Assembly (NCBI GenBank): GCA_014905635.1
Contig: JABVCE010000013.1
Location: forward strand, 124,001 to 188,000
Reading direction: 5' to 3'
DNA length: 64,000 nt
Origin: Scenedesmus sp. PABB004
Taxonomy: Eukaryota
Under the pieces are notes generated by a model. The model saw only the letters and a program-made list of their open reading frames with translations, was not told the DNA's origin and made no database searches. Within the stretch, counting starts at the first letter, position 1, and the number at the start of each line of letters is the position of its first letter. Both the position numbers and the translations under genes were made by a program. Shown here in pieces: positions 8,133 to 53,835 of this stretch.

Positions 8133-9049
8133 TCACGAGAGCTCGTAGCTCCACGCGACGCGCCGGTTCTGCAGGCGCACGCACCAGCTGTTCTCGCCGA
8201 GCTTGAGGAACGGCGTCACGCGCCGCGCGCCGTCCGGCCCCACCACGACGTCCGCGCCCGCCGCGAGCTGCAGGTCCTGCTTGTCTGTCACGTTGAAGCG
8301 CAGCGCCTTGACCCGCACGCTGCCGGTCACGCCCGCGCGCTGCGTCGCCGCGTCGAGCTCGAGCCGCGCCTTGGCGGCGAGCCAGCTGTCCCACACGCCG
8401 CGGCGCCACAGCACCTGCGGCTGCTTGCGCAGCTGCACCGTGTACTTGAGCTGCTCGCCGCTGCTCGCGCTGCTTGCGCCGCTCGCGCTGCCGCCGGCGG
8501 CGCCCGGCGCGCCCGCCGCGCCCGCCGCCTCGTAGCGCACGCCCGGAGCGAGCGTCCAGTCGCGCAGCAGCAGCGCGCCGAGGCCGCCCGGCAGGAAGCG
8601 CTCGGCGTCGATCGGCGGCTCGCCGTCGAGGCGGATGCCGCGCTCCGCCGCGACGATGCGCGCGAGCGTGGGCGTGCCCTGGTGCCACGCCTTCTGCAGC
8701 TGCGCGCTGTGCGCAAACGCGCCGCTCGACGTGTCCAGGCGCGCCTGGCGGTGGCGGGCGCAGCGGCGGCGGCGGCGGCAGGGGCGCGGGTCGGCGGCCG
8801 CCGCCGACCAAAGGCGGCGGCGGGCGGGCGCCGGCCGCCGCGCCGCGCCTTGTATCGGAACTCGACGTTCCTCCTGCTCGTCAGCGTCTGGCGCACGTTG
8901 AGCGCGAGGCGGTCGTCCCAGCACAGCCGCGTGCGCACGCCGCCGAAGAGCGTGGCGCCGCCGCGCGGCCCGAAGTCGCTGCTGGCCTCGCTGCTGGCCT
9001 CCTCGCTCGACGACGACTCGCGCTCCTCCTTGTCCCGCGTGCCGGCCAT
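8133..9049 (-). CDS. OEP21: Chloroplast outer envelope pore protein 21-like beta-barrel
   Basis: Two exons joined by a GC-AG intron (8848-8745). The C-terminus RFNVTDKQDLQLAAG..PFLKLGENSWCVRLQNRRVAWSYEL resembles the recalled plant OEP21 end (FNFQKDQD..PY.QIRENNW..W.VRYDL). Alternating beta-strand pattern. Confidence 0.6.
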
Positions 9050-9399: not shown

Positions 9400-11283
9400 A
9401 TGGAGTGGGCCGACACGGGCCTGGAGGCCCGCATCCTGCGCGCCCTGGCCAAGCAGGGCCTCGCGGAGCCGACGCCGGTGCAGGCCGCCGCCATCCCCGC
9501 CGCCCTGAGCGGCAAGGACATCGTCGCACGCGCGCGCACGGGCAGCGGCAAGACGCTCGCCTACCTGCTGCCCGCCCTGCAGCGCATCGTGGCCGCCAAG
9601 TCCAGCCGGCAGCCCTGGCAGGTGCTGGTGCTGGTGCCGACGCGGGAGCTGTGCGACCAGGTGCGTGCCGGCGATGCGCCCGGCGGCGAGCGGCGGCTGG
9701 CGGCGGCGCCGGCGCCGGCCAGGGGCAGCGGCGAGGCTGCGGGCCCCCGCAGCCGCAGCCCGAGCGCAGCCGCCCACGTGTGCCGCCGCCGCCGCGGGCT
9801 GCCCGCCGCAGGTCGCGGCCGAGGCGCGCGGCGTGGCGGCCCACTGCGGCGCGCCGGTCGCGGTGACGGCGCTGCTCGGCGACACGCCCGTCGCGCAGCG
9901 CGCCGCCGCCGCGTCGGCGGGCGCGCTCGTCGTCGCGACGCCCGCGCGCGTCGCGACGGCGCTGCGCGAGGGCTGGCTCTCCGCGGCCGCGCTCGGCGGC
10001 GCGCTGCAGCTGCTGGTGCTCGATGAGGCCGACCTCCTGCTGAGCTACGGCTACGCGGAGGACCTGCAGGCGCTCGCGGTGCACGTGCCGCGCTCCGCGC
10101 AGGTCCTGCTCATGAGCGCGACGAGCAGCGCCGAGGTGGAGGCGCTGCAGGCGCTCGTGCTGCACAACCCCATCACGCTCAACCTGCTCGCGCCGGGCGG
10201 CGCCGGCGCCGGCGAGCCGGGCGCCGCGGGCGGCGAGCCGGCGGCGGCGGGGCTCGGCGACGGCGGTGCCGGCAGCGCGGCGGAGATCTCGCACTGGCGC
10301 TACGAGTGCGCGCGCGCGGACCGGCGCCTCGCCGTGCTCGCGCTGCTCAAGCTCGGCCTGCTGCGCAAAAAGGCGCGGCGCGGCGCGGCGCGGCGCGGCG
10401 GGTGGCCCCGCGCGCGCGCCCCGCGGCCCGCGGCGGGCGCGGCCCACGTCGTCTGCCGCGGGCCTGCGCAGGTGCTGGTGTTTGCCAACAGCGTGGAGGA
10501 GGGCGTCGGGCTGCGCCTCTTCCTCGAGTCGTTCGGCGTGCGCCTCGGCTGCCTGCACGCGGAGCTGCCGGTCAACAGCCGCAGCCACATCCTGTCCAGC
10601 TTCAACAAGGGGCTCTTCGACTTCCTCATAGCCGTGGGTGAGACGCGCGCAGCTAGCTAGCGCCCGCGCCGCCGCGCCGCAGCCTTTGCCGAGTCGCGGC
10701 AGCCCGGCTCGGCCGGGCCGGGCGGGACCCGGCCCGGCCCGCCGCCGCCGCGCGGACGGGAGGGCGCCCACGCCGCGCCGCGCCGCGCCGCGCCCGCGCG
10801 CAGACGACGTGCACGCGCGCGACCGCGCGGCCGCGGCGGCGTCGGCGGCGGCGGCGGCGGCGGCCGCGCCGGGCGCGCGCGGGCGCAAGCGGCGGCGGCG
10901 CGGCGAGCCCGAGGGCGGCGGCGCCGCGAAGGCGGCGCGGCCGCGCAAGGACGAGGAGTTTGGCGTCACGCGGGGCATCGACTTCAAGGGGGTGCGCAGC
11001 ATCGTCAACTACGACCTGCCCGACAGCGTGCAGGCGCGGCGCGGCGCGGCGCGCGGTCGGCGCAGTGCCACGCGCCGCCAGCGCGTCCACGTGCGAGCGT
11101 GCGTGCGTGTGTGCGTGCGCGTGTGTGGCCAGTGATGATCACTGTTTCAACAAGGCTTAATCTTTGCGTAGGGCCTGCCTAGACACCAGGCCCGCGGACG
11201 AGAACTGACACCCTGAGGCCACGCGCGGACAGGCTTGCCCCCTTCTGCTCTGCCGGCGTTGGGCTGCCGGCGCCTGGCTGACC

Positions 11284-11332
<49 letters not shown>

Positions 11333-12528
11333 AGGGCTACGTGCACCGCGTCGGCCGCACCGGGCGCGCCGGGCAGTCTGGCCTCGCGCTCACCCTGTTC
11401 ACGCCCCAGGACGTCGTCTTTCAGCAGGAGCTGAGCGATGCCCTCGCCGCGCAGCAGGGCACCGCGGCCGCGGCGGCCGCCGGCGCCAGCGGCGGCGGCG
11501 GCAGCAGCGACGACAGCAGCGGCAGCGACACCGACGACGAGGGCGGCGCCGGCGCGCGGCGGCGAGGCGAGGGCGAGGTGCGCGCGCGCGGCGCCGCGCG
11601 GCCCCGCGCGCGCCGCGCGGCCCCGCGCCCGCCGCGATCACGGGCGCGCCCGCCGCGCCCGCGTCCGCGCCCCGTGCCCGCAGCCGCTGCGGCCGTTTGC
11701 GCGGCTCAGCAAGGCGTCGCTCGAGGCGCTGCGCTACCGCGGCGAGGACGTCGGCCGCACCATCACCAAGGCCGCGGTGCGCGAGGCGCGCGCGCGCGAG
11801 CTGCAGCGCGAGCTGCTCAACAGCGAGGCGCTGGCCGGCTACTTTGAGGAGCACGAGGCCGAGCGGGTGCGCGCGGCGGGCGGCCGGGCCGCTGGCGCGC
11901 GGGCCGGCGCGGCGCGGTGCGGCGGGCGCCTCGTTGCGGCGGGGCCGCGCCCGCGAGTCGCGCTGAGCGCGCGCCCGCGCGCGCGCGCGCCGCCGCTGCC
12001 GCCGCCGCCCAGGCGCTGCTGAAGCACGACAAGCCCATGCACCGCAAGGCCGGCAACGCGCCGCACCTGCGCCACGTCCCCGCGTACCTGCGCGACCCCG
12101 CGGCGCTCGCCGCGCCGGCGGCGGCGGCCGCGGGCGCGGCGGCCGCGGCGGCGGCGGCGCGCGCGCCCAAGGCCCCCAAGGCCAAGCGGCCGAAGCGAGC
12201 CGACCCGCTCAAGGCCGCGGCGGGCGGCGCGGGCGCTGCAGGCGCAGCGCCCGCGCCCGCGGCGGCCGCGGCGGCGGCCGGGGGTGCGGGCTTCGTGCGC
12301 GCGCCCAAGCGCGGCGGCGGCGGCGCGGACGAGGAGCTGACCGAGCTGGAGCGCCGCGCGCTCGCGCGGCCGCTCAAGCCGAGCCGCGCCAAGGCGCTCG
12401 CGGGCGTCGGCGGCGCGGCGGCGCGCGCCAAGGCGCTGGGGCCCAAGGTCGCCGCGATGGCGGCCAACAAGCACAACGTGAAGACGGTCCGGCCCAAGAT
12501 GGGCGCCGGCGCCAAGGCGCGGCGCTGA
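9400..12528 (+). CDS. DBP9: DEAD-box RNA helicase DBP9/DDX56 (60S biogenesis)
   Basis: Q motif [54 protein letters not shown]. Family-specific [24 protein letters not shown] and HLRHVPAYL. About 6 introns, two of them GC-AG. Confidence 0.95.
11125..11222 (+). ncRNA. Intronic box C/D snoRNA (18S rRNA guide)
   Basis: Box C GTGATGA 11132-11138 and box D CTGA 11213-11216. Terminal stem GTGGCC/GGCCAC and internal hairpin GGGCCTG/CAGGCCC. GGCTTAATCTTTG (11154-11166) is the reverse complement of conserved 18S 5' sequence CAAAGATTAAGCC. AT-richer island within intron 11034-11334. Confidence 0.85.
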
Positions 12529-19500: not shown

Positions 19501-19522
19501 GGCCAGGTTGCCGGGACCGCTC

Positions 19523-20593: not shown

Positions 20594-20834
20594 GGTGCAG
20601 GACGTCAGGCGAACGGGACTGTGGCGGGACTGTGGCGGGCGTGGGACGCCTGCTGGCGCTCTGGGCGCGGGCCCGAGGCAGAGCCGCGAGGGCGCGCCGC
20701 GCCCCAGCCCGGCACGGGCCCCCCGCGGCTGGTGCTGCAGAGTCACCGCCACCGCCGCTCCTCCTCGACGCGACCGGTGCCGCCGTCCGCGCGAGCCCAC
20801 AGCCACCCGTCGGCCCTGTCCAGAGCCTCGCGCG

Positions 20835-21482
20835 ATGTCCAGCCTCTGCCGCCGCGCCTGCCCGCTGCAGCGCCCGGGCGTGCCGTCGGGCGCGCTCTCC
20901 ACGTCTTGCAGTGTCAGGGCGAGCGCAGTGCGGCTCACGCCAGCGGCGGCGCGGCGCGCCGGCAGCAGCGGCAGCAGCAGCGGCGCGCGCCGGCCACAGC
21001 CGCAGCAGCTGGCGTCCGGCGCGGAGCGGCCGCCGGGTGCGCCGCGGGCGGAGCAGCAGCAGCAGCCAGCTCCCGCGCAGGCCCCCAGCGGCGGCGCGCT
21101 CGTGGCGGGCGTGGCGGCGGCGGCGGCCGCGGCGCTCGCGGCGGCGGGCCCCGCGGCCGCGGCGGGGCTTGACGCGCCCGCCGCGGCCGCGCTCGAGTCG
21201 GTGCTGCGCCCGGTGTTCACGCTCTTCACGGTGCTGTACATCGTGCGCATCCCGCTGACCTGGTACCCCTCGATCGACGGCACCAAGCTGCCCTGGCTGC
21301 TCGCGGTCGCGCCGACGGAGCCGTTCCTGCGCGCGACGCGCGCCGTCATCCCCGCCGTCGGCGGCGTCGACGTCACGCCGATCGTGTGGGTGGGCGTGAT
21401 CAGCTTCCTCAACGAGATCCTGCTCGGCCCGCAGGGCATCCTGCTGCTCATCCAGCGCGAGTCGGGCGCGGGCCTGCTCTAG
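20835..21482 (+). CDS. CCB3: YGGT-family thylakoid protein CCB3 (heme ci assembly of cytochrome b6f)
   Basis: Single exon with a transit peptide, then [56 protein letters not shown], which is characteristic of CCB3. Confidence 0.9.
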
Positions 21483-23106: not shown

Positions 23107-26100
23107 ATGGGCCCGCGCGGCGGCGGGCGCGGCGGCTTCAACCGCGGCCCGCAGCTGCCGCGAGGGCTGGCGACGGCGGTCGGCGGCGGCGGCGGCGGCG
23201 GCGGTGCGTGCACGCGTGCGGCGCAGCAGCAGCGGCGGCAGCGGCGGCAGAAGCAGCGGCGGCAGCGGGGGCAGCGGCGGCAGCCCGGGGCAGGCCTGGC
23301 CGCGCGTGTGGCGAGCCCGCGGCTGCTGACGCCGCCACCGCCGCTCACGCCCGCCGCAGGTCGTGGCAGGGGCGGCTTCGGCGGCCGGGGCGGCGGCGGC
23401 GGCGGCCGGGGCCGCGGCGGCCGCGGCGGCGGCGGTGGCGGGCGGCCCGCCAGCCGCAAGGAGCTGCGCAAGGCGGCGCGGCAGGAGAGGAAGCACCACC
23501 GCTTTGAGGCGCAGCAGGCGCACGCGACGGCGCGCCACGCGGCAGCGCAGGGCGGCGCCGGCGCAAAGCGCCCCGCGCAGCAGCAGGACGGTGGCGCCGG
23601 CGGCGGCGAGCCCGCGGCCAAGCGGCAGCGCGCGGAGCAGCCGCCGCTCGCGCAGCAGGGCGCGCCGCCCGCGGCGCGGGCGCCGCGCCCGCAGCCGCAG
23701 CGTGCGCCGCAGCCGGCCGCCGGCGGCGGTGGCGCGGCCGCGCACGGCAGCAGCCGCACCAAGTTTTACGACATGCTCGCCGCCGAGGGCGTGGCGCCGG
23801 CGCCGGGCGGCGGCGCCGCGGGCGCCGCGAGCCAGGCCGCGTTCCTGGCCGACCTGGCGCTGCAGCGCGAGATGGCGCGCAAGCTCAAGGTCAAAAAGGT
23901 GCGCGCCCGGGCGCCTGCACGCGCGCGGGGGGCGCGCTGCGCTGCCCGCCCGCCCGGCCCGCCGCCGCGCGGCGCCCCACGCCGTGCCGCCGCGTTGCCG
24001 TGCCCGCGGCGCAGGGCTCGCAGCGCAGCGGGCCCGAGGACGGGCTGGACGCGCTGCTGGCGGGCATCACCGCGGGCACCAGCCACCTGCCTGCCGGGCT
24101 GGACGGCGCGGCGCAGCCCAGCAGCGGCAGCGACGCCAGCGGCAGCGACGCCAGCGGCAGCGACGCCAGCGGCAGCGGCAGCGAGGGCGGCTGGGGCGAG
24201 GGCGAGTCGTCAGACGGTGGGCTCTCGTCGGACAACGAGGGCGCGGACGGCCTCAGCGGCGGCAGCAGCGACGGCGGCGGCGGGCTGGGCTTTGACTTGG
24301 ACGGCTCGGAGGGCGAGCAGGAGGAGGGCGAGAGCGGGGAGGGGGAGAGTGAGGAGGACGACGGCCTGATGGGCATGCTGGGCGGCGCCTCGTCCGACGA
24401 GCTGGACGCCAGCGGCAGCGGCGACGACGAGGGCGGCAGCGGCAGCGGCGACGGCGAGGGCGGCAGCGGGTCGCTGGAGGAGAGCGACGGCGACGGCGAG
24501 CCGCGGCAGCGGCCGGCCGTGGGCGCCAAGGCTGCCGCGCTCGCGCCGGAGGCCGCGGCAGCCGGCGCCGCCAAGTACGTGCCGCCGGCGCTGCGGCGCG
24601 CCCAGGAGGCGGCGGCCGCGGCCGGCGGCGGCGGGCTCGCGCCGGCGGTGCAGCGCCGCGTTACCGGGCTGCTGAACAGGTGCGGCGCGCCGAGGGCCTG
24701 CGGGGGTGCGGGCCGAGGGCCTGCGGCCCGCGGCGCACGCGCGCCAGCCGCCGCGGCGCCGACGCCGCGTCCGCCTCCGCCGCCGCCGCCGCCGCCGGCG
24801 CCCAGGCTGGCCGAGTCCAACCTCCAGGGCATCGTGGCCGAGCTGCTGGTGCTGTACCAGAGCGAGGGCCGGCGCTGGGTCGGCGACGCGGTGTCCGCGG
24901 GCCTGCTCGCCGCCGTCGCGGAGGGCCCGCGCGCGACGGAGCAGTTTGCCGCGGTCGCGGCCGTCGCGGTCGGCGGCCTCGCGGCCGGCGCGCGCGCGCA
25001 GGACGTGAGCGCGCGCTTCCTCGAGATGCTCGCGGCGCGCCTGGAGCAGGTGTGCTGTGCTGCGCTGTGCGCCGCGCCGGCCGCCCTCCGCCGCCGCGCA
25101 CCGCGCCGGCCGCCCTCCGCCGCGCGCGTGCGCACCGCGCCCGCCGCGCCGCGCCGCGCGTCGAAGGCGTACGCCGCGGGCGACGGCCTGGCGTGCCACA
25201 ACCTGGTCATGCTGCTCGCGTACGCCTTCAGCGCGGGCGTGGTCGCGGCGGACCTCGTGTTCAGGCGCGCGCGCGCCGCGCCGCGCCGCGCCGCGCGGCC
25301 CCGCCGGCCGGCGCCGCGGCGCCGCGCCCCGCGCCCCGCGCCCACGCCCCGCGCCGCGCCCGCGCCGCCGCGCCGCGCAGCGTGCTGGGCGAGCTGACGC
25401 GGCGCTTTGAGGAGGGCGACGTCGCGATGATGCTCACACTGCTCAACGCGGTCGGCCTGCAGCTGCGCGCCACCGACCCCGCCGCGATGAAGGCGCGGCG
25501 CCTTGCCACACTGCTGCGCCTCGCGCCCGGCCGCACGCCCCTGCGGCCCGCGCGTGCGCCCCGCCGCGCCGACGCGCGCGCGCCCGCGGCGCCCGCACGC
25601 CCTGAACCCGGCGCAGGGCTTTGTGCTCGCCGTGCACGCGCGCGCCGCGGCGGCGGGCGGGCGCATGAGCAAGCGCGCGGAGATCATGCTGGAGCTGGTC
25701 ATGGACATAAAGAACAACCGCGCCCGGGAGGCTAAGGCAAAGGCCAAGAAGGGCGCGGCGGCCGGCGGCGGCGGCGGCGGCGGCGCCGCCGCCGCGGGCC
25801 GCGGCGGTGCAGCCGCGGTGCTCCAGCCGCCACTGCTCAAGTGGCTGCGCGGCGCGGGCGTCGCTGACGTGACGCTCGCCAACGTCAGCTGGGCGAAGCT
25901 GCTGCAGCCCGACAAGAAGGGTGCGGCGGCGCGGCGGCGGCGCGCGGGGGGCGGGCGGGCCGCGCGGGCGCCCGCGCGCGGCCGCCCACGCCGCCGCCGC
26001 CGCCGCCGCGCGCGGCGCCGCAGGCATGTGGTGGCACCCGTCCGCCACCGACGCCGCCGCGGGGCTGCTGCCCGGCGTGCTCGCGGAGCACGACGCCGCC

Positions 26101-27342
26101 GGCGCGGCGGCGGCCGCGGCGGCAGCGGCCGCGGCCGACGCGGACGACGACGACGACGGCGGCGGCGCCGGCGCCGGCGCCGGCGCCGGCGGGGGCGCGC
26201 CGGGCGCGGCGCAGCTGCTCGCGCTGGCGGCGGGCATGCGCATGACGACCGACGCGCGGCGCGCCGTGTTTGTCGCGGTCATGGGCAGTGAAGACTGCGC
26301 AGAGGCGGCGGAGAAGCTGCTGCGCCTCCCGCTCAAGGCGCGCCGCCGGCGCCGCGGCGCGGGGCGCGCGGGGCTCGTGGCGCGCTGCGCGTGTGGGGCT
26401 TGCGGAGCGTGCGGGGCGCGCGGGGCGCGGGGCTCCGCGGCTGCGCCGCCGCCGAGCGCCGCCTCGCCGGCGCGTGCGCGGCGCCGCGCAGGGCGACCAG
26501 AGCCGGGAGGTCATGCGCGTGCTGGTCGAGTGCGCGCTGCAGGAGGCGCGGTACAACCCCTACTACGGCCACCTCGCGGCGCGCCTCGCGGCGGTCAGCA
26601 AGGCACACAAGGCGCGCTGCGGCGCCGCGCGGCGCGGCGCCCCGCGCGGCGCGCGCGGGCCCCAGGGCCGGGGCCGCGCGCGCGGCCGCGGGCTGGGAGG
26701 GCTGGGGGCTCGTCGGCTCACCGCAGCCGCCGGCTGCCCGGGCGCTGCCTGCGTGCCCTGCCAGGTGACGCTGCAGTACTGCCTGTGGGACCAGTGGAAG
26801 GAGGTCGGCGCCACCGAGCCGCGCCGCCTGCTCTGCCTCGCGGGCCTCGTCGGCCACGTGCTCGCGGCCTTCACGCTGCCGCTCTCGGCGCTCAAGCCGG
26901 TGCGCGCCCGCGCGCTGTGCTGCCGCGCCGGGCCGTGCCGTGCTGCCGTGCCGCGCGCGCCGCGCGCTCTGCGCATCGCGCCGAGCCCCTGCCGTCGCCG
27001 CGGGCTGCCGCCGGCCGGGCGCCGCAGATCGACTTTGACGCCTGCGCGAGCTGGACGGCCAAGGAGACGTTCCTGTGGCGCCACACGCTGCAGGCGGCGC
27101 TCTCCGGCTTCCGCGCCGACGCCGACGCCGAGGCCGCGTTCGGTCGCCTTGCGTCGCAGGCGCCGCTCGGCGGCCTCAGCCGGGGCCTGGGGCTCTTCCT
27201 GCGCCTCCGCGTGGGGCCCTGGCTCGTCGCGCAGGGCGACGCGGGGCTGCTCGCCCGGCCCGCCGCGGACGCGTGCCTGCGGCGGCTCGCCGCGGCGGAG
27301 AAGACGCTGCTTAGCAGCACCGCCGCCGTGCTCGCCGGGTGA
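23107..27342 (+). CDS. NOM1: Nucleolar MIF4G/MA3 domain protein NOM1/SGD1
   Basis: RGG/basic N-terminus (SRKELRKAARQERK), acidic linker, KYVPPALRR, VTGLLNRLAESN, MTTDARRAVFVAVMGSEDC, EVMRVLVECALQEARYNPYY, VTLQYCLWD. About 11 introns, four GC-AG. Confidence 0.92.
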
Positions 27343-28084
27343 CCGGCGGCGGCCGGGCCGCCCGCGCCGCTGGCGCCGCGGAAACGCGCCGATGCATCGA
27401 CGGCGGAGGCGAGACAGCTCCACGAGCTGCGTGTGCCTCGCGCCGACGGGGGTGAACATTCAAACCTGGCTCGAACCCGGACCCGCCCTCGCCGCCCGCG
27501 CTGCTGCCGCCGTTCGCGCCTGGCGTGTCCAAGGACCACGTGCCGCGCAGCCCCCACCCGCCCCGCCGCCCGCACGCGCCCGCCACCACAACGGCGCCGG
27601 CCCCGCCACCAAGGACCCCGCGCGCTGCGCCTGAGCTGATCGTCAAGGCCAGCGCAGTCCTCGTGCTCTCTAAGCTGCCGCGCGTGGCCTGCGCGTGCGC
27701 GCCGGGTGAGCAGCAGCGGCGCGTGCATTCGGGGGCCAGGCCGTGCCCGCGGCCTGGCAGCGCCGCCTGGCGGCCTGCGCGCCAGCCGAAGAGCGCGATA
27801 GGGCTCCCAGGGAGCGCCAGCCGCGCCCCCAGCCCTCGCAGGTCGCGCAGTGCGCTCGCAGCAGCGGCGGCGCCGCCGGGCAGGCCATGCGCGCCAGCGG
27901 TTGTTGTTGCCCACGCACCGCCCTGCCGCGCGCGCCCCCGCGCCTGTCCGCAGGCCGCCATGCCCCCGCGCAGCTGAGGCGAGCCGGCGGCCCGCAGGCG
28001 CCCGGAGGGCGCGGCGCGCGGCAGGCCGCTGGGCCAAGCCTGCTTGGCGCGTAAGCGGCTCCGCCAGGCGGCGGCGGCGGCGCG

Positions 28085-31000
28085 ATGTTTTACTCCAACC
28101 AGATCCTCGCCCGCAAGGGCCCGCTGGGCCTGGTGTGGATCGCGGCGCACCTGGACCGGCAGCTGCGGCGCAAGCAGATCAACGACACCAGCATCCCCGC
28201 GAGCGTCGACACGCTGCTCGACACCGAGGTCCCCCTCGCGCTGCGCCTGTCGGGGCAGCTGCTGCTCGGCGTCGTGCGCATCTACGCGCGCAAGGTGCGG
28301 GCCGGGGCACGCGGCAGCGCGCCCGCGTGACTGCGCAGCGCTGCCTTGACCGCGGGGCGTCTCACGTGCCGCCCGCCGCCGCGGCCGCACACGCGGCGGC
28401 GCAGGTCGGGTACCTTGCGGAGGACTGCGAGAGCGCGCTGGGAAAGATCCAGGTCGCGCTGCACCGCGCCGACTCGGCGACGCTCGCGCCGGGCGCGCAG
28501 TGTGCGCCGATGGCGGCCATCACGCTGCTGCCGGCGCGCGGGCGGCGCAAGGCGCCGCGCCGCGGCGCCGGCGCCGAGTGCGCCGCGGAGGACGACGCCG
28601 CGGCGCTCGGCGACGACGGCGGGCTGCTCGGCGCCGACGCGTTTGCGTGGGAGCAGGACGTGCTGCTCGCGCGCGACGCCGGCTTTGGCGCGTGGGAGGC
28701 CGCGGGCGCGGGCGGCGGTTTTGCGATTGACCTCGGTGGCGCTGCGCCGTCGGCGTCGGGCCTGCTGTCCGCGGACGTGTCGAGCCTGTGGGGCATGGCC
28801 AGCAGCGGCGCGGGCGACGCCGAGGTGTTTGACGCGGCCGACGAGGAGGCGGCCGCGGTGTGGGACCTGGACGCGGTGGAGGTCGAGCGCCTGCGTGCCG
28901 CGCCGCCGAGCGCGGCGACCGGCGCGAGCGGCGGCGGCGTGTCGGGCCTGCTCGGCCTCGCGCCGCCCCTCGACGGCACGCCCGGCGTGGACGGCCCGCG
29001 CGGTGGGTGCCCCGCGCGCGCGCGCGCCGGCAGGCACGGGCGCGAGCCGCCTGGCCGGCCCGCCCGCTGTCGCTGAGCACGCGCGCCCGCGCACGCCCGC
29101 GCAGGCAAGACCGCGGCGCGCACGCCCGCCGACTCGGAGGGCGACGACGCGCTGCACGCGCCGCCGCCCGACCTGGACGACCCGCTCCCCGCGTCGCCGC
29201 GGGGCCTGGTGCCCGCGCTTGGCGACGGCAGGGGCGCAGATGGCACGCCCATGAGCCGATTCGCGCCGCGTGGCGCGAGCCCCGGCGCAGACGTGCTGCC
29301 GCCCACGCCCGGCGGCAGCGCCGGCGGCTACGCTGGCGGGCCCACGCCCGGCAGCGCGGGCGACGCCGCGGCGGTGCTGCCGCCGACGCCGGCCGCGGAC
29401 GACGCCATGGAGTGCGACGCGCCGCCGGCGGGCGCGGACGCGGCCGACCAGCTGCAGGCGGACCAGGGCGACGCGCGCGGCGTGGCCAAGACCTTCCAGC
29501 GCCGCGGCGCGGCGCGCGGCGCCGCGGCGCCCGAGCCGGAGGCGCCGCCGGCGCCCACGGCCGCCGCCGCCAAGGCGGCCAAGCAGCGCCGCGTGGGCGC
29601 GGTGCTGGGACAGAAGCGGCGCATGCAGCTGGACGACGCGCCGCCCGCCGGCGGCGAGGCGGGCGAGCACGGCGCCGGCGGCCGGCGGCAGCCGCCCACG
29701 GAGCTGCCGGCGCGGCGCTTCCGGGCCCTCATTGCCGACTGGGGCGAGCTGCTGGACCCGGCGGTGCGCGGGGCGCGGGGCGCGGGCGGCAGCAGCCCGG
29801 CCGCGGCGCCGCGCTGCGCGCGCGCCGCCCGCCGCGCCGCGCCCGGCCGTCCGCTGCCGCCTCACTGCCGCCCCCGCCCGCCCGCGCCCGCAGCGCGCCG
29901 AGCTCGTCGGCAGGCGGGGCCAGCCCGCGGCGGCGGGCGCGCGGCAGGCCCTGCTGGCGCACGCCGGGGCCAGGCCGCCCTGCGTGCCCGGGACGCTCGG
30001 CGCGGCCGGCGTGCTGGGCGCGCCGGCGCTGGCGCTGCCGCCGCAGCTGCAGGCGCTCTTTGCGGGCGCGGCGGCGGGCCGGCGCGCGGGCGGCGCCGGC
30101 GCGGACGCGGGCGGCGCGGCCCCCGCGGCGGCGCTGGATGAGATCGGGCTGCTGGGGCCCGACGACGACGGCGAGCTGGACGCCCCCGGCGCCTTCCTGG
30201 CGTCGCCGGGGCTCGGCCTGCTCGGCACGCCCGGCAGCGCCGGCGGCGGCGACGCGACGCCCGCGTCGCGCGGCGCGGGCGGCGACGACGGCGCGCCGCC
30301 GCCGAGCGCGGGGCCGGCGGGCTACACTGGCGGCTCGCTGCCCGACTGCGCGGGCGGGTTCACGCCCGGCCTCACGCCCGGCGGCCTCGAGGACGAGGCC
30401 GGCGCGCTGCGCCTGCTCAGCCCCCAGGCGCACGCGCCCGGCAGCGCGCGCGGCCTGGTGCTGCAGCTCGCGACGCAGGCGCACGACGACGACGGCGGCG
30501 CCGGCGGCAGCCAGGGCCTGTGGGGCAAGGAGAACCTGGCGCCCGGCGGCACCTTCCACAGCAGCCTCGTGAGCACGCAGGAGCCGCTGCCCTGGGCGGC
30601 CGACGCCGAGACGCTGGTCGAGCTGCCGCCTGACGGCGCAGGTGAGCCCCCGCGCTCCGCGCCTCCCTCGGCCGCGCCGGCGGGGAGCTCGCCGGCCGGG
30701 GCTGCCCCCGCTCACCGCGCCGTCCCTGCACGCGCGCCCGCCGCAGAGGCCCCCGCGGACGGCGGGTTCACGGCCCGCACGCGGCTCGTCATGCGCCAGC
30801 TGCAGCGCGCCGGCGCGGCCGCGGCGGGGCGCGCCGGCGGCGCCGCCGTCGCCGCCGCCGCGACGCCGTCGGGCGCCGGCCGCAAGCGCGTGTCGCCCGC
30901 GCCGCCGCCCGCGCTCGCCAAGGGCGGCGCCGGCGCCGACCCGACGCTCAGCTTTGCCGCGCTCACGGCGGGGCACGGGCGGCTGGACGCGTGCCGGTGG

Positions 31001-31111
31001 TTCTACGAGACCCTGGTGCTCGCCAACCGCGGCCTGGTGCGCCTCGACCAGCCCGCCGCGTACGCCGACATCGCCGTCACGCCCGCCCTGGACGCCATGG
31101 GCCGCATCTAG
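28085..31111 (+). CDS. RAD21: Cohesin alpha-kleisin RAD21/SCC1 family
   Basis: N-domain MFYSNQILARKGPLGLVWIAAH..LALRLSGQLLLGVVRIYARKVGYL; C-terminal winged helix RLDACRWFYETLVLANRGLVRLDQPAAYADI. Confidence 0.93.
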
Positions 31112-31549
31112 GCCCCGCACCGCGCGCCGCGGCCGAGCTGCGCTGGAGCTGCGCGCGGCGCGGCGCGCGCGCAAGAGGGAGAGGCCGCTGGCCGCTGGGA
31201 GAGGCAACCGCGCGCGAGGCGAACCTTTCCCCAGCTCCATCGCGCCGGGGGCAGCTGTCAGGAGCGCAGCTGGGCCCGGCCCGGACCGCGGCGCAGGCGG
31301 GCGGCGCCGGCGGGGTCCAGCGAGGCGCACGCCACCGTCGCGCCGAGGGCGAGTGCGTGCCCGCTTCCACCGGCATCCCCGCACACGCCGTCGATCACGC
31401 ACGCATCAGCGCCGCGTCTCCCACACCCCGGAGGCAGCCGCAGCAGCAGCAGCAGTCTCGGGATCCCCGGTCTTCCCAGGTCTTGCCGCGCCGCAGCCCG
31501 CGCCGCAGCCCGCGCCTGACCCCGCCCTCGCGGCCGGCAGCCGGCCAGG

Positions 31550-34500
31550 ATGTCGTCCTTCCTCACGGAGCAGCAGCGCGCCGCGCTGGACGCGGCGCTC
31601 GCGGAGCGCTTCGCCGCTGGTGCGCGGGCGATCGCGGGCGGCGGCGCAGCGGGTTGGCCGTCGCGAGCCAGGCGCCTCGGGCGCAGGCGCGGGCCGGGAT
31701 CGCGCCGCCCGGCGCGGGGAAAGGGCCGCGATGCGGCGCACGGTGCCGGAACGCCGCGCTCGCCGCGCCGCGGGCGGGGCGCGTGGTGCCGAGGACCCCC
31801 GGTCAGGGTCGCGGCCGGGCATCGCCGCGCCACAAGGGGGGCGCGGCAGGGCAGGGCAGCAGCGGCGGCAGCGCGCCCGCCAGCACGGCGGCTGACGCGC
31901 CCGCGCCGCGCCGCGCGCAGGCGGCCGCACCGGCGGCAAGGGCGCCCACCACGCGCCTTCCAGCGGGCCGCACGCGGGCGACAAGAAGTCCAAGAGCGTC
32001 AAGGGCAGCGGCGCGACCAAGAAGGGTGCGCCCGCGCCCGCCGCTGCACCGGCGCGCCGGCGGCGGCGGCCGGCCGCGCCGCGCCGCTCACCCCGCGCCC
32101 CCGCGCCCCCTGCTCGACCAGGCGGCGGCGGCGGCAAGTTCACGTGGGGCCGCCTGCTCGAGGGCGAGGAGGGCGTGTCGGCACTGGACAGGCGCGGCGG
32201 CTGCCCCGCGCTGCGGCGCCCTGGGGCGCCTTGCCCCCGCCCGTCTCCGCCGCTGCCGGCTCTGCCGCTGCCCCCGCCACCCGTCTCCCTCACATCGCTC
32301 GCGCTCTCCCGCTCCCCAACTGTTCAGGCACGACCCCAACTATGACAGCGACGAGGAGCGCGCCGCCGTGATCCTCGCGGCCGCCAACCCCGCGCGCAGC
32401 CGCATCGCCGCCGAGGTCGCGGCGTACAAGCAGGAGGCACGCCGCCGCCGCGCACCGCGCTGCGCTCGCCGCCGCGCCCGGCCCTCCCTCTCCTTTCCTC
32501 CCCTCCCACGCCCCGCATGCACGCCCATCTAACCCACACCCACCCACCCACCCACCCACCCACCCACCCACCTATCAAACACAACAATCAAACCACACAG
32601 ATCACCGCGATCGCGGAGGAGTACTTTGCGAGCGGCGACGTCGGCGACGCCGCGGCGAGCCTGGCCGAGCTGGGCGCGGCCGAGGCGATGGGGCACTACT
32701 TTGTCAAGCGCCTCATCACGCTCTCCCTCGACCGCAAGGACAAGGAGCGCGAGATGGCCTCCGGCCTGCTCTCGAGCCTCTACGCCGAGGTGGGCGCGAC
32801 GCGCGGCGCGGCGCGCGCGCAGCACGCACAGCACGCGGCGCAGCGCGCGGCGCAGCACGCGGTGGCGCGCGTGGCAGCGCGCGGCAGAGGGCGCGGCGGC
32901 GCGCTGATGCACGCACGCGCCGCGCGCTGCCGTCGCCGCCGGCGCGCAGGCGCTGCCCGGGGACCAGGTTCAGAAGGGCTTTGCGCGTCTGGTTGAGAGC
33001 CTGGACGACCTGGTGCTGGACGTGCCCAACGCGGTGGAGCTGCTCGCGCTCTTCATCGCCCGCGGCGTGGTGAGGGGGCGGAGGCGGGGGCGCGGGGTTT
33101 AGGGCGGGACAGGGCTTTGGGCGGGCGGGGGCGGGGAGCGAGAGTGTGTGTGTGGGACAAGGGGGGGGGGGGGACTGCGCAATGGGTGCAGGCGTGCGGG
33201 CGAGCAGTGGCCCGACGACCAGCGCGCGCCGCCGCCGCCGCCGCCGCCGCCGCGGCGCAGGTGGACGACGTGCTGCCGCCCGCGTGCGTCGCGCGCTGGG
33301 CGGCGGGCGCGCCCGAGGGCAGCACGCTCGCGGCGCTGCGCGCGCGCACGGAGCAGCACCTCGCGGCGCGGCACTCGGCGGAGCGGCTGCTGCGCTGCTG
33401 GGGCAGCGGGGCGGGGCAGACGTACGGGGAGACCAAGGAGCGCATTGCCAAGGCACGGCGCCCGCTGCTGCGCCCGCTGCTGCGCCCGCTGCTGCGCCCG
33501 CTGCCCGCGCCGCGCGCGCGCCGCCCGCGCCCACCGCGCGCACGGCTGCGCGCGCGCTTGACCCCGCCTCCCTCCCCCCTCCCTCACCCCTCCGCCCCCC
33601 TTCTCTCCCCCCCCCCCCTCCCCTCCACACGCACACGCACACACACACACACACGCACGCACAGCTCCTGGCGGAGTACCTCGACTCCCGCGACGCGGCC
33701 GAGGCGTCGCGCTGCCTGCGGGGCCTCGCGGTGCCGTTTTTCCACCACGAGCTCGTCAAGCAGGCCCTGCACGCCGCGCTCGAGGTGCCCGCGCACGGCG
33801 ACGCTGTCATCGCCCTGCTCACGCGGTGCGCTGAACCGCTGCGCGCCGCCGCGGCCTGCATGCACGCCGCCGGCCCCGCCGCTGGCCCGCAAGTGCGACG
33901 AGCCGCCCGCCGCCCGCTGCCGGCCCGCGCGCGCGCGCGCGCGCACACGCACACACACGCAGGCTGTCTGAGAGCAGCGAGGTCAACGCGAGCCAGCTGG
34001 CCAAGGGCCTGCAGCGCACCGCGGCCAACCTGCCCGACACCGCCCTCGACAACCCCGCCGCGCCGGTGCGGCCGCCGCCCGCGCGCGCCGCCGGGCGCGC
34101 CCCCGCCCGCGGCCCCGGGCACCGCGCGCCGCGCCCATATGCCGCGCCCACATGCCGCGCCTACGCCGGGCGCCCCGGCTGCACAGGAGCGCTTTGACGC
34201 GCTCCTCGCGGCGGCCGCGGCGGCGGACCTGGTCGAGCCGGACGCGGTCGCCGAGCTCAAGGCGACCGCCGCGGGCCCCGCCGCCGGCGACGCGGCGCGG
34301 CCGCCGTCGTCCAACGGCGCGGCGCCCGCGCTCAACGGTGACGGCGGCGGCCTGCTCGGCGGCGCTGGCGTGCCGGCGTTCAAGTCGGCCATGGCGGCGG
34401 CGCTCAAGGAGTTTTTCAACTCGGCCGACGTGCAGGAGGTCGCCGCGCGGTGCGCGGGCGCGTGCGCCGCGCGCGCACGCCTCGCCGCCGCCCCCGCGCT

Positions 34501-36217
34501 CGGGCCCGCGCACGCCGGCGCCGCCGCCGCCGCCGCCGCGACCGCCACCGCAGGCTGTCTGAGCTGGGCCAGCCGGGGCTGCACCCGCTGTTTGTGAAGC
34601 AGGTCGTCACGCTCGCCATGGACCGGCGCGACCGCGAGCGCGAGATGGCGAGCAGCCTGCTCAGCGAGCTGCACCCCGCGGTCATCACCGACGACCAGGC
34701 GCGCGCCCGCAAGCCGCGCCGCGCCTGCCGCCTGCGCTCTGCTGCGCGCCCGCCCGCCCGCCCGCGCCGCGCGCTGCGCCCGCCGCCGCCTGCGCTCTGC
34801 TGCGCCCGCCCACCCGCCCGCCCGCCCGCCCGCCCGCCCGCCCTCACCACCCACGCGCGCACCCTCCGACGCGCGCCCACGCCGCCCGCCCACACTGCCC
34901 GCCCGCCCGTGTGCACGCGCCCCGCGCCTCAGATGGTGTCGGGGTTCAGCCGCCTCCTCGCGTCGTGCGATGACCTCATCCTGGACATCCCCGACGCGGT
35001 GCACCTCCTCTCCCTCTTCCTCGGCCGGTGAGGGATGGGGTGGGACGCGTTGCCCGCGGCGCGGCGGGGCCGCGCGGGCCGGGGCCTTGGGGCCCCCTGC
35101 CAACACCCTCGCCTGGAAACCCTCGCCTGGCGCTGCGCTGAGCCGCCGCCGCCGCGTCCGGTGTGTGCGCAGCGCGATCGTGGACGAGGTGCTGCCGCCC
35201 GCCTTCCTGGCCAGCTGCCTGCCCGCGCTGCCCGACGGCGGCCTCGGCATCACCGTGGTGCAGGCCACGGGTGCGTGGGCCGCCGCCGCGCCCGCCGCCG
35301 CCGCCTTGGCCGCGGGCCCGCCGCGTGCGCGCACCGCCGCCGCCGCTCACGCACACGCGCACACGCCGGCGCCGCCGCCGCCGCGCCGCGCAGGTGCGAT
35401 GCTGAGCCAGCGCCACGCCGCGGAGCGCCTCACCGCGTGCTGGCACGGCGGCGGGTTGTCGCTGGACGACGTGCGGCGCAGCATGCGCGGCGCGCTCGAC
35501 GAATTCCTGCTCGCCGGCAGCGGCGCAGAGGTCGCCGCGGTGCGCGCGCGCGCGCCACCCGTCTGCTCCCGCCGCCCGACGCGCCCGCCGTCGCGGTTGC
35601 GCTGCGTCGCGCCCGCGCCCGCCCGGCGCGCCAGCACGCTGCGCCGCGCCGCGCACGTCCGCGCCGCCGCTGGCCCGTCCCTCGCTGCGCCGCGGTCGTC
35701 GGCCTGCCATTGACCTGCCTGGCGCTGACCTGGCGTTGACCTGGCGTTGACCTGGCGCTGACCTGCCTGGCGCTGACCCCAGGTGCTGAAGGACATGGAC
35801 CTCCCCCACTACCACCACGAGCTGGTCAAGGCGGCGGTGGAGATGGTCTTTGGCAGCCCCGCGCGCGCGCCCCAGCTCGCCGGCCTGCTGCGCCAGCTCA
35901 GCGAAACGGGCGTGATCTCGAGCACCCAGATGGCGCAGGCGCGGCGCCCGCGCGCGCCTGGGCGCGGCGCCCGCGCGCGCCTGGCCCGCCGCCGCGCACG
36001 CCACGCGCGCCGCGCGCGCCGCTGCACAGCGCCCGGCCCGCCGCCGCGCGCGCCGCCCACGCGCGCGCGCCGCCGCCGCGGCCAGGGCCTCGCGCGCGTG
36101 CGCGACCTGCTGGCCGACGAGGCGCTCGACGCGCCGGGCGCGCCGGCGGCGTTTGAGAAGCTGCTGGCGCAGGCGGGCGCGGAGGGCTGGCTGCCGCAGG
36201 AGATGGCGAGCAGCTAG
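31550..36217 (+). CDS. PDCD4: PDCD4-like four-MA3-domain translation regulator (plant MRF family)
   Basis: MSSFLTEQQRAAL, KKGGGGGKFTWG, DRHDPNYDSDEE, repeated MA3 cores (EEYFASGD, HYFVKRLITLSLDRKDKEREMAS, FFHHELVKQAL, LAMDRRDREREMAS, HYHHELVK). Five GC-AG introns. Confidence 0.9.
35710..35782 (+). repeat. Tandem YTGACCTGGCG repeats at an intron 3' end
   Basis: TGACC starts at 35711, 35726, 35737, 35748, 35759 and 35774, immediately before acceptor AG 35781-35782. Confidence 0.9.
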
Positions 36218-36402
36218 GCGCGGGCCGGCCGGCGGGGTGAAGGCCGCATGCTTGGGGGGAGGGGGCGTGAGCTGGCGGCGGGCGTCGTGACGTCGGGGCC
36301 GTCGTTAGGCGTGACGGGGAGGCAGGCTGCAGCTGGCGCGGGCCGTTGCTCGAGTAGGGACCGGACCGCTGCGCCGCGGGGCGGCGGCGGGCGCAGCGTC
36401 CT

Positions 36403-39220: not shown

Positions 39221-42107
39221 TCACTGCAGGTAGGGCAGGCCGTCGCGGTGCTCCGCGACCCACGCGCGCGCCGCCGGGAGCCAGGCCGCCTGCGCCGCGC
39301 CGAGCGCGCTGGCCGGGCGCGCGGTGCGCGCGCACCCCGGCGCGCCGCCGGGCGCCTCGACGCGCAGCGCCGGCAGCACCGCGCCGGCCGCCGCCAGGGG
39401 CTGGCCCGACGCGCCGCGGCCGACCGCCTCGCCAGACTCGGGGAGCACGAGGCGCGCCGTGCCCCACGCCGCCGCCTCGCAGTCGAGCCCCTCCGCGCCG
39501 CCGGCCTCGGCATCGCGCCGCAGCGCCCGGCACGCGCGTAGCCAGACCTGCTCGGGCAGGTGCTGCAACGCCTCGGGCTGCTGCTGCTGCTGCTGCTCTG
39601 GGCCGCCGCCGCCCGCGCCGGCGGCCGCTGCACCCCCGTCGCCCGATGTCGCCGCCGCCGCCGCCAGCGCCCGGCCGGCCGGCCGGCGCCGCCGCCGGCC
39701 GACGTGCCGCTGCGGCGCGCCGGGCGGCAGTAGGGTCACGCCGCTGCGCGGTGCGAGCGCCACGGCCGCGCAGGCGCGCCCAAGGCCCGGCAGCTCCGCC
39801 ACGGGCAGCCCCTGGGCGCGCAGCTCCATCCACTGCAGGAAGCGCACGAGCGGGCAGCCGCGGTGCTCAAACACCAGCGGCGGCGCGGAGGCGTAGCCGC
39901 CGCCGTCGCCCACCCACGTCGCCGGCGGGCCGCGGCAGGCCAGCGCGAGCGGCGCGAGCGCGGCGCGCGGCACGTCGGGCGTGAGCGCGGCCGCCGCGGC
40001 CTTGGACCCGAGGTGGGTGTTGATGAACCAATTCGGCAGCGGGCCCGTCACGACGTCCGCCTGCGGGGGCGGCTGCGCGACGACATCCTCCCATTTGGCA
40101 AACGTGCGGTGGAAGAAGGCGGCCCTCCCCTGCGGCGGCGGCGGCGGCGTCGCCCCAGCGGCGGCCCGCAGGGGCTGCTGCTGCGCGCGCGTGCGCGCGG
40201 CGCGGCGCGGGCCCTGCGCCGCACCAGGTGGTCGTGCTGCAGCATACCCTGGAAGCGCCACGCGCCGCCGGCCCCCGCGCCAAACGCGGCGCCCGGGGGC
40301 GTCGCGACGGCGGCGTAGTCGTGCAGGGAGCGCGCGAGGGCAAAGGCGACGCCAAAGGTGTCCTTGTCCCCGAGCACGTGCCTGCGCAGTTCAGCGGCGG
40401 CGGCGGCTCAGCGGCGGCGGCGGCTCAGCCGCCGGCGCGCGGCCGCCGCGGGCGGGGCGGGGCGGGGCGGAAGGGGGAGGGGGCAGCCCGCGCCGTGCGG
40501 TTGCTCACTTGTAGAGGTCTGAGGAGAAGGTGGTGAGGAACCAGAGCCACTCGAGCGCGGCCGCGTGACGCACGCGGTCCAGCACCAGCTGCCCGCTCTC
40601 TGCCGCACGCGTCACCGGCCCGCCGCCGCCCGCGAGCGCGGCCTGCGCGGCGGCGGCGGCGGCGGCGGGAAGAGGGGAGGGGGGAGGCTCGCGCGGCGGC
40701 TCGCGGCCTCGTGGCTCGTGGCAGCACGGCTCGCGGGGGCGGGCTTCCAGGCGGGCGGGGGCGGCGGCGCCGCTGCCGCCGTGCGCACCCAAAACTGCTT
40801 CTTCTTGATGCCAACCAGCGGATAAAGAGATTCGTGGGGGATGAACGGCGTGGAGGCGAGCTCGGGGCTCCACAGGTCCTTCCTGCAAGCGGGGGAGGAT
40901 GGTCAAGAGACTCGTAGGGGCTGGACGGCGGGGAGCCCGAGCGGCCGGGCGCGGCGGCGTGCCGTGGCGCGCGCGCGCGCGCGCGCGCCACGCGCTGCTG
41001 ACCAGAACATGCTGCCGTGCGTGCGCATGTGGGGCGAGTCGAAGAGGTGGGCGGGGTCGGCGAGGGGCAGGTTGTCCGCATCGAGCAGCAGCACCTGCCC
41101 CCACGCGCGCGCGAGGTCGGCCGCACGTCGGCCGGCCGCCGCCGCCGCCGCCGCCGTGGCGCGCGCTCACGCGCGCGGCCGTCAGCGGCCGCCGTTGGGC
41201 CGCGCCGCGCCGCGCCGCGCCTGCTGGAAGCGCGTGTGATAGAGGGCGAAGACCTTGGGCTCGTAGCGGTCCAGGTGCACGTCGCTGCGCGCGGCACACA
41301 GGGGGGGGGGGTGTAGGGGCCGCGCGGCGCAGCGCGCCGCGGGGGCGGGCAGTGGCGGCGGCGGCGCGCGGCGCCTGCCGCCGTCCCCGCCGCTCCCCCT
41401 CGCGCCGGCGCTCACGCCTTGTGGTGCGCGGGGTGCGGCTGGGCGCTGAGGTCGAGCCAGGCCAGCGGCGGGAAGGCCCGACTGAGCGTGGCGCGCGTCG
41501 CGCCGTCCACCTCGGCCTCGCCCTGGTGCGCGACCTCGACGGGCAGCGAGCAGTTGTGCTGGCGGCGCAGCACCTGGCGGGCGCGTCGCGTGGCGACCAG
41601 TTGTGCTGGCGGCGCAGCGAGTGGCGGGGGGCGCAGCAGGGCGCGTCGCGCGCTGCCGCCGCCGCCGCCGCGCGGCCGCGCGCGCGCGCGCGCTCACGTG
41701 GAGCATGATGGCGAGCTGCCCGATGTGGTGGCGCTTGCCGGCAGAGATGAGGATGCCGCGCCGGGGCAGCGCGCGCAGCGCCGCCAGCCGCGCGTCGCGC
41801 CCCGCGCCGGCGAGGAACTGCGCCACCTGCTGCGCCTGGGCCGCCATGCCCCGGTGGCCCGGTGCGCCGGCCATGTAATCCTCTGGCAGCCCGGGCGGCC
41901 GCGGGCACCAGCCCGGCAGCGGGCAGCGCCGGAGCGCGGCGCGCACGTTGCTCTGCTGCTCTGGCGCGCCCCCGGCGGCGGCGAGGAGCGCCAGGCAGCA
42001 GCAGGCCGCCTGCGGCGCGGTCAGGACGGCAGCTCAGATCGATCCCGTGCGCGTTGCTGTGCGCGGGGGCGCGCGTGACGCACCAGCGCGGCGGCGCCAC
42101 GCGGCAT
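39221..42107 (-). CDS. GT71 (MNN1/MNN2-like) alpha-mannosyltransferase
   Basis: Signal anchor MPRGAAAL-AACCCLALLAA; RGILISAG, SLPVEV, KVFALYHTRFQQ-VLLLDADN..DPAHLFDS, ESGQLVLDR, LGDKDTF motifs typical of the family. TGTAA 39167-39163. Confidence 0.85.

Positions 42108-45850: not shown

Positions 45851-53835
<7,985 letters not shown>

Follow-up and report, generated by a model that had tools for sequence, protein, structure and literature searches.

GC-AG introns are known to be "extraordinarily abundant" in certain species whose genomes are rich in G+C: Iwata and Gotoh (PMC3033335) give shares of 39.6% for Aureococcus, 22.2% for Micromonas pusilla and 7.7% for Chlorella sp., and tie this abundance to genomic G+C. 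The U1 genes that they describe from Aureococcus and from both Micromonas species carry the canonical 11-mer AUACUUACCUG, and the authors leave modification or small nuclear ribonucleoprotein (snRNP) proteins open as a cause. In Emiliania huxleyi, about 60% of donors are GC, which has been ascribed to GC content (Feldmesser et al., PMC4028052), and pelagophytes have 14-17% (bioRxiv 10.1101/2024.10.30.620910). More generally, genomic GC correlates with splice-site GC (Frey and Pucker, PMC7072748), and GC donors are described as intrinsically weaker, with a remaining consensus that is on average stronger, in humans as in lower organisms (Kralovicova et al., PMC3167603). Abundant GC-AG introns in high-GC algae with a canonical U1 are thus already on record, and we add to them a case from a chlorophycean of very high GC content: 64,000 nt (hereafter the window) from contig JABVCE010000013.1 of Scenedesmus sp. 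PABB004 (assembly GCA_014905635.1), whose genome comprises 39.8 Mb at 78.5% GC (PMC12571836). Literature searches, which covered the text of the papers cited here, found no publication on PABB004 splice sites. Roughly a fifth of the predicted introns in the window begin with GC, and all of these follow an exon that ends in AG. Most probably, they belong to the ordinary U2-type GC-AG introns that a canonical U1 recognises, and they have become unusually frequent in a genome of about 79% GC while staying confined to AG-ended exons.

At a G+C content of 79.4%, the window lies well above 60% and its GC-AG share far exceeds the usual 1-2%, which places it with the high-GC algae in which such introns are enriched. 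It holds spliced eukaryotic genes. A Sec7-domain exon used as a query retrieves the NCBI protein P0121 (1,728 residues), labelled Scenedesmus sp. PABB004, and exons of CCT-beta and of a PDCD4-like gene match Tetradesmus/Scenedesmus orthologues at 83-93% identity. All introns of the window discussed below are computational predictions from a purpose-written Viterbi gene finder, which combines three-periodic second-order coding scores with frame-consistent introns, GT or GC donors, AG acceptors and self-training. The final models come from expectation-maximisation (EM), in which each donor class had its own matrix and acceptors had a further one, and comprise 17 genes with 116 introns, 90 of them with GT and 26 with GC donors. 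Two GC "introns" (19391-20333, 943 nt, and 20501-21080, 580 nt) were excluded because they stem from a model that merges neighbouring genes, leaving 114 introns. The model in question (g05, 15259-21482, forward strand) fuses at least two genes; both long "introns" are probably intergenic, and its 3' part (about 21080-21482) encodes a separate short membrane-like protein.

Donor type and exon end are tightly associated. GC donors open 24 of the 114 introns in the window (21%), and each of these 24 introns begins with GC, ends with AG and follows an exonic AG, which is the end of only 22 of the 90 exons spliced at GT. Phase is 0 in 21 of the 24, after AAG, CAG or GAG codons. Counting all 116 introns, AG exon ends are followed by 25 GC and 22 GT donors, other ends by 1 dubious GC and 68 GT donors (Fisher p = 1.8e-11). 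The single departure is one of the two excluded g05 "introns"; among confident introns, GC follows none of the 68 non-AG exon ends. Restricting the count to the four genes checked against orthologues gives the same picture (AG ends: 17 GC, 11 GT; non-AG ends: 0 GC, 34 GT; p = 2.9e-8); the first two junctions of NOM1, which lie in low-complexity sequence, enter this count as modelled. By comparison, just 90 of the 2,966 GCGCG sites in the window (0.030) are preceded by AG, so that the AG context at GC donors stands at 33 times background. The observation is therefore real and well beyond chance. Our own models reproduce the count of the original prediction, according to which all 24 GC donors follow exonic AG, and differ from it by one in the motif: 22 rather than 21 read GCGCG, while the GCACG donors reported at 32437 and 33453 are both confirmed. 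The same source had donors after non-AG ends as GT, which is the case for 68 out of 68 confident ones, rather than GC being equally common there, and had many GT donors reading GTGCG, as do 57 of the 90 (a further 20 read GTGAG). AG-ended GT donors likewise read GTGCG. Between 25260 and 36090, where the cluster had been described as densest, 9 of 25 donors are GC.

With GC accounting for 21.6% of all dinucleotides in the window, one may suspect that these donors are mis-called junctions with true GT donors nearby. The junctions are known from prediction, a heavy GC penalty lets a GT path replace most GC donors (see below), and over-calling is easy in such DNA: when GT and GC were penalised alike and no motif prior was set, the gene finder returned 119 introns with 75 GC donors, of which just 20 followed AG. 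Most of the remaining 55 lay a few bases from GTGCG or GTGAG, and these 55 calls are spurious. Handicapping GC by a flat 5 nats, again with no prior on context, left GC at 15 of 117 donors, 12 of the 15 after AG and 11 of the 15 reading GCGCG; the AG rule thus emerged without a motif prior. Mis-calling is further at odds with the 33-fold excess of AG context and with conservation. We aligned model proteins to orthologues retrieved by single-exon queries and found 17 of the 24 GC junctions, across four genes, in gap-free alignment: both junctions of the highly conserved CCT-beta (against 8 orthologues), all six of a GBF1-like gene (against P0121 and Tetradesmus P0125), all five of the PDCD4-like gene (against 6 orthologues, some of them transcript-derived) and all four of NOM1 (against 6 homologues). 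Moving those junctions by a few bases yields no GT or GC start. Our GBF1-like model agrees with P0121, the sole public PABB004 protein compared and itself an NCBI protein model, at 26 of 27 junctions, including all six GC junctions. Taken together, these results make mis-calling a very improbable source of the GC donors. The seven donors outside these alignments (at 8848, 10373, 11034, 41220, 51954, 53118 and 53431) are placed by the gene model. Of four exons of the DEAD-box gene that were searched singly against the PDB, two had no match, and a search with a PDCD4 exon returned no PABB004 protein among its matches. The one mismatch between our GBF1-like model and P0121 lies at 57100-57290 on the reverse strand, where our donor GGC/GTGCCC (the slash marks the exon-intron boundary throughout) retains the residues VWG, also present in the Tetradesmus orthologue, and the NCBI model drops them.

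Why should GC be tolerated after AG and nowhere else? U1 nucleotides U10 and C9 are the pairing partners of exonic A-2 and G-1, so that the AG requirement itself amounts to U1 compensation, albeit on the exon side. We counted Watson-Crick pairs at positions -3 to +8, taking AUACUUACCUG from PMC3033335 as the canonical 5' end of U1. AG/GC donors form 4.75 pairs on average and non-AG/GT donors 4.81, which is no difference (p = 0.77), against 5.91 for AG/GT donors. In other words, GC donors trade the pair at +2 for two exon pairs. The claim that GC donors lack the usual U1 compensation consequently holds for the intron side, where each of the 24 has C at +4, and is not supported for the exon side, where AG makes up the count.

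A similar trade is visible at +4. A occupies this position in 20 of 68 donors after non-AG ends and in 2 of 46 after AG ends (p = 6e-4), and this scarcity of +4A at all AG ends ties the missing GCGAG and GCAAG donors to AG exon ends generally rather than to GC donors specifically. Across the 90 GT donors, +4 is C in 59, A in 22, G in 6 and T in 3, where dinucleotide bias would give a background of about 61:10:19:10 (C:A:G:T); the roughly 2.5-fold excess of A, found mainly without AG, is consistent with a canonical U1. At +5, G stands in 88 of 90 GT and 26 of 26 GC donors (114 of 116), +3 is G in 112 of 116, and 23 of the 24 GC donors have C or A at -3. The suggestion that recognition leans on exon positions -2 and -1 plus +5G is thus borne out. 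After AG, finally, 22 confident donors have T at +2 and 24 have C. Set against a G-T-G to G-C-G background of about 1:5.8 (from dinucleotide counts), this near parity means that +2T is still favoured after AG but dispensable. These position dependencies match those expected of a canonical U1.

The same intron can carry GT in some relatives and GC in others. A metagenome scan with the Sec7 exon found 80 loci, and in eight of them (L001-L008) we read donors at two intron positions of GBF1-like genes; peptide anchoring of the 27 GBF1-like junctions in six metagenome loci recovered few positions. One of these introns, which follows TDRHNxQ (window 58538..58728, reverse strand), has the donor CAG/GCGCGC in PABB004. 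It reads CAG/GTGAGC in L003-L005 (contig GC 50-53%), CAG/GTGCGC in L002 (58%), CAG/GCGCGT in L006 (59%), CAG/GCGCGC in L007 and L008 (70-71%) and CAG/GCAAGT in L001 (78%; 10052-10610, a T-rich intron), and L009 and L010 lack it. In L001 and L004-L008 we confirmed that an AG acceptor and the downstream exon follow; contigs L002 and L003 stop before that exon. At the preceding intron (window 58966..59084, AAG/GCGCGC), L002 has AAG/GTGCGC and L006 AAG/GTGGGA. GT and GC therefore swap at the same two intron positions across relatives, always after AG, and AG/GCGCG donors are not peculiar to the PABB004 genome. Comparing orthologous introns in lower-GC relatives had been proposed as a way to detect conversion from GT to GC: at the TDRHNxQ intron the lower-GC contigs do carry GT and the higher-GC contigs GC, an unpolarised alternation. 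The L001 donor, CAG/GCAAGT, is an instance of classical intron-side compensation, which the GC donors of the window lack.

Alternatively, the machinery itself might have adapted to extreme GC, with direct reading of G-C-G-C-G made possible by a U1 whose 5' end is variant, by a U6 with a variant ACAGA box, or by altered U1C, LUC7 or PRP8. Such a scenario could accommodate the prevalence of +4C (59 of 90 GT and 26 of 26 GC donors), the dearth of +4G relative to background, and the poor intron-side match and weak duplex energy of AG/GC donors against a canonical U1, and RNA modification or U1 snRNP proteins were left open for other algae by Iwata and Gotoh (PMC3033335). A U1 that paired with +2C would make exonic AG needless, yet GC donors occur only after AG. 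Nor would one expect +4A to be enriched about 2.5-fold in GT donors, mainly those without AG, as a canonical U1 predicts. The canonical 11-mer is present in the two further high-GC algae in which GC-AG introns abound (PMC3033335), and in three unrelated contigs from the metagenome scan (59-71% GC) CAG/GCGCG likewise opens the TDRHNxQ intron. Variant machinery is not needed to explain the donors, the AG dependence itself argues against it, and we regard it as unlikely. No more credible is a shift in U1 snRNP preference, brought about by variant U1 copies, base modification or U1C/LUC7-type proteins, towards a MAG/GYGCG optimum, with base pairing no longer used to read +2 and +4; were this nonetheless true, extreme GC pressure would have remodelled 5' splice-site recognition itself, rather than merely let sites drift. 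Searches for small nuclear RNA (snRNA) genes gave no Rfam match at gathering thresholds, either in the window or in six related metagenome loci, and U11, U12 and U6atac had no match within the window. Relaxing the threshold to E <= 1 returned only mir-466 in the window (56718-56784, reverse strand; 26.4 bits against a gathering threshold of 85, E = 0.83), a match in a GC-rich intron-exon region that is almost certainly due to chance.

Several points weigh against reading these introns as ordinary GC-AG introns under a canonical U1. Every junction is predicted computationally, and the canonical U1 of PABB004 is assumed, the window containing no snRNA gene. A GC handicap of 9 nats leaves just 5 GC donors, against 26 after EM, which means that coding potential alone does not force GC donors (the GT donors that take their place are mostly non-consensus, such as GTCAT, GTCTT and GTGGC). 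Conversely, the class-specific EM matrices might mask true non-AG GC donors in genes without orthologue comparison. The equality of pair counts between AG/GC and non-AG/GT donors could be coincidental: by nearest-neighbour duplex energy, AG/GC donors (-3.9 kcal/mol) are weaker than non-AG/GT donors (-5.6 kcal/mol; p = 4e-4), with AG/GT donors at -7.2 kcal/mol. On the intron side there is no compensation, +4 being C and never A in any confident GC donor (26 of 26 when the excluded two are included), and in GT donors +4G falls three-fold below background while +4C is at background, an unexplained shortage of G. Finally, across both strands, 12 sense-exon copies and 4 sense-intron copies of AGGCGCG go unused as donors in our models. 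The exonic copies imply that further context must contribute and that AGGCGCG is insufficient alone. Apart from this, the unused copies may be cryptic or alternative donors, or a sign that more context is required.

Are AG/GC donors then not by-products of mutation but a functionally distinct class, whose weakness is maintained for the sake of regulated intron retention or of alternative splicing? Their lower duplex energy would fit, the 12 unused exonic AGGCGCG copies could act as alternative donors, and E. huxleyi shows high intron retention beside its GC donors (PMC4028052). If so, however, we would not expect GC donors in housekeeping genes (CCT-beta, the DEAD-box helicase, GBF1), at conserved positions that read GT in relatives. 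About half of AG-ended exons use GC, which is more like drift at a relaxed site. We consider a regulated class improbable.

Returning to ordinary GC-AG introns as the preferred explanation, the following scenario may account for their distribution. GC-biased mutation or fixation would push +2T of the donor towards C, and such changes would persist only where the rest of the donor keeps enough contact with the canonical U1 5' end. In practice, enough contact would mean an exon that ends in AG and pairs with U1 U10 and C9. The working signal would then be MAG/G-Y-G-C-G, relaxed at +2 and +4 and anchored by -2A, -1G, +1G, a wobble-pairing +3G, and +5G. Exons with other ends retain +2T without exception and more frequently carry +4A. 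In short, mutational GC pressure with selection as its filter would be the cause, acting on sites that are still read by what we infer to be a canonical U1.

Table 1. GC-AG introns of the window and three neighbouring gene models that contain or lack them. Positions are those of the window; a slash marks the exon-intron boundary.
Feature	Position	Strand	Donor	Phase	Basis and remarks
NOM1-like gene g07	23107..27342	+			own model; 10 introns, 4 GC
g07 GC-AG intron	25265..25380	+	CAG/GCGCGC	2	model and homologue alignment
g07 GC-AG intron	25493..25616	+	AAG/GCGCGG	0	model and homologue alignment
g07 GC-AG intron	26338..26491	+	AAG/GCGCGC	0	model and homologue alignment
g07 GC-AG intron	26612..26764	+	AAG/GCGCGC	0	model and homologue alignment
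Rad21-like gene g08 (putative name, from translation)	28085..31111	+			own model; 4 introns, all GT
PDCD4/MA3-domain gene g09	31550..36217	+			own model; 15 introns, 5 GC
g09 GC-AG intron	32192..32327	+	CAG/GCGCGG	2	model and orthologue alignment
g09 GC-AG intron	32437..32600	+	GAG/GCACGC	0	model and orthologue alignment; holds (CACC)9 repeat
g09 GC-AG intron	33453..33664	+	AAG/GCACGG	0	model and orthologue alignment; holds 12-nt tandem repeats
g09 GC-AG intron	34699..34932	+	CAG/GCGCGC	0	model and orthologue alignment
g09 GC-AG intron	35939..36085	+	CAG/GCGCGG	0	model and orthologue alignment
CCT-beta (g13) GC-AG intron	47446..47748	+	AAG/GCGCGG	0	junction K/D gap-free against 8 orthologues
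CCT-beta (g13) GC-AG intron	47908..48125	+	AAG/GCGCGC	0	orthologue alignment
GBF1/GNOM-like Sec7 gene g16 GC-AG intron	61968..62086	-	CAG/GCGCGG		same in P0121; gap-free against Tetradesmus P0125
g16 GC-AG intron	59331..59431	-	CAG/GCGCGA		P0121/P0125 alignment
g16 GC-AG intron	58966..59084	-	AAG/GCGCGC		P0121/P0125 alignment
g16 GC-AG intron	58538..58728	-	CAG/GCGCGC		P0121/P0125 alignment
g16 GC-AG intron	55838..56006	-	CAG/GCGCGC		P0121/P0125 alignment
g16 GC-AG intron	55075..55227	-	CAG/GCGCGC		P0121/P0125 alignment
DEAD-box (DDX56-like) gene g03 GC-AG intron	10373..10471	+	AAG/GCGCGG		model only
g03 GC-AG intron	11034..11334	+	CAG/GCGCGG		model; continuity inferred
g02 GC-AG intron	8745..8848	-	AAG/GCGCGG		model only
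Mannosyltransferase-like gene g11 GC-AG intron	41095..41220	-	CAG/GCGCGG		model
Leucine-rich repeat (LRR) gene g15 GC-AG intron	51954..52029	+	CAG/GCGCGT	1	model only; least certain of the 24
g15 GC-AG intron	53118..53226	+	CAG/GCGCGG		model only; also picked in equal-penalty run
g15 GC-AG intron	53431..53535	+	CAG/GCGCGC		model only; also picked in equal-penalty run

Some junctions in Table 1 can be placed further. The CCT-beta exon at 47203-47445, just upstream of the first GC donor of that gene, has 93% identity to Tetradesmus P0001. In the DEAD-box gene, single-exon comparisons with Pfam suggest continuity: the exon after the first GC-AG intron begins at position 18 of the Helicase_C profile, which is compatible with the junction and no proof of it, and in the exon upstream of 11034 the match to the same profile runs on to profile position 96 of 110, reached at residue 75 of that exon's 76. 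In the mannosyltransferase-like gene, the Mannosyl_trans3 match of the exon downstream of the GC-AG intron starts with the first residue of that exon. The donors of the Rad21-like gene are AAG/GTGCGG, GCG/GTGGGT, GCG/GTGCGC and CAG/GTGAGC. Many introns of the PDCD4-like gene (window 31500-36300) consist largely of short tandem repeats, among them (CACC)9, a 12-mer repeated 3.9 times, an 11-mer repeated 4.4 times and a CGCC-rich run of 38 units (for example at 32537-32572, 33458-33504, 35718-35765 and 34747-34909). Repeat-filled introns have been described for Emiliania huxleyi, and those of the PDCD4-like gene resemble them. A two-unit gene at 50328-51444 on the reverse strand, by its translation a putative fusion of ubiquitin with a NEDD8/RUB-like unit, has four GT introns.

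The clearest feature of the window is a sharp conditional rule, and this rule is useful for annotation. Banning GC donors and permitting them everywhere both lead gene prediction astray in very GC-rich algae: a heavy GC penalty discarded donors that are backed by orthologue alignments, and the remedy is to permit GC solely after exonic AG. The window also offers a natural titration of the 5' splice site in which, given AG, T and C are about equally frequent at +2; this near-equality supports a threshold model of U1 pairing. It further extends to a chlorophycean the link between G+C and GC-AG introns known from pelagophytes, Micromonas pusilla, Chlorella sp. and Emiliania.

How do these introns compare with described systems? 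With Aureococcus anophagefferens, Micromonas pusilla, Emiliania huxleyi and Pelagomonas calceolata, PABB004 shares a high proportion of GC-AG introns alongside high G+C and AG acceptors. It differs from them in being a chlorophycean (Sphaeropleales) of still higher GC content (78.5%; PMC12571836), and the strict condition that GC donors occur only after AG is not stated in the text of the reports on the other algae, which is the part compared here. U2-type GC-AG introns of animals and plants likewise start with GC, end with AG and follow a MAG exon end; in them, a stronger consensus elsewhere in the donor offsets the mismatch at +2, as described in PMC3167603. They account for about 1% of introns, against 21% in the window. 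Unlike them, the PABB004 donors compensate on the exon side only, reading GCGCG rather than GCAAGT, with +4 never A. A non-GT start is also possible in U12-type introns, which have an extended conserved donor box and a branch site of their own type; a U12-type identity was rejected for the window, whose GCGCG and GCACG donors are variable from +6 to +9 and have no such box. Dependencies within 5' splice sites are a further parallel: exon positions -2 and -1 trade against intron positions +4 to +6, and in PABB004, too, +4A is enriched without exonic AG and nearly absent with it. What sets PABB004 apart from these dependencies is that its trade-off reaches +2.

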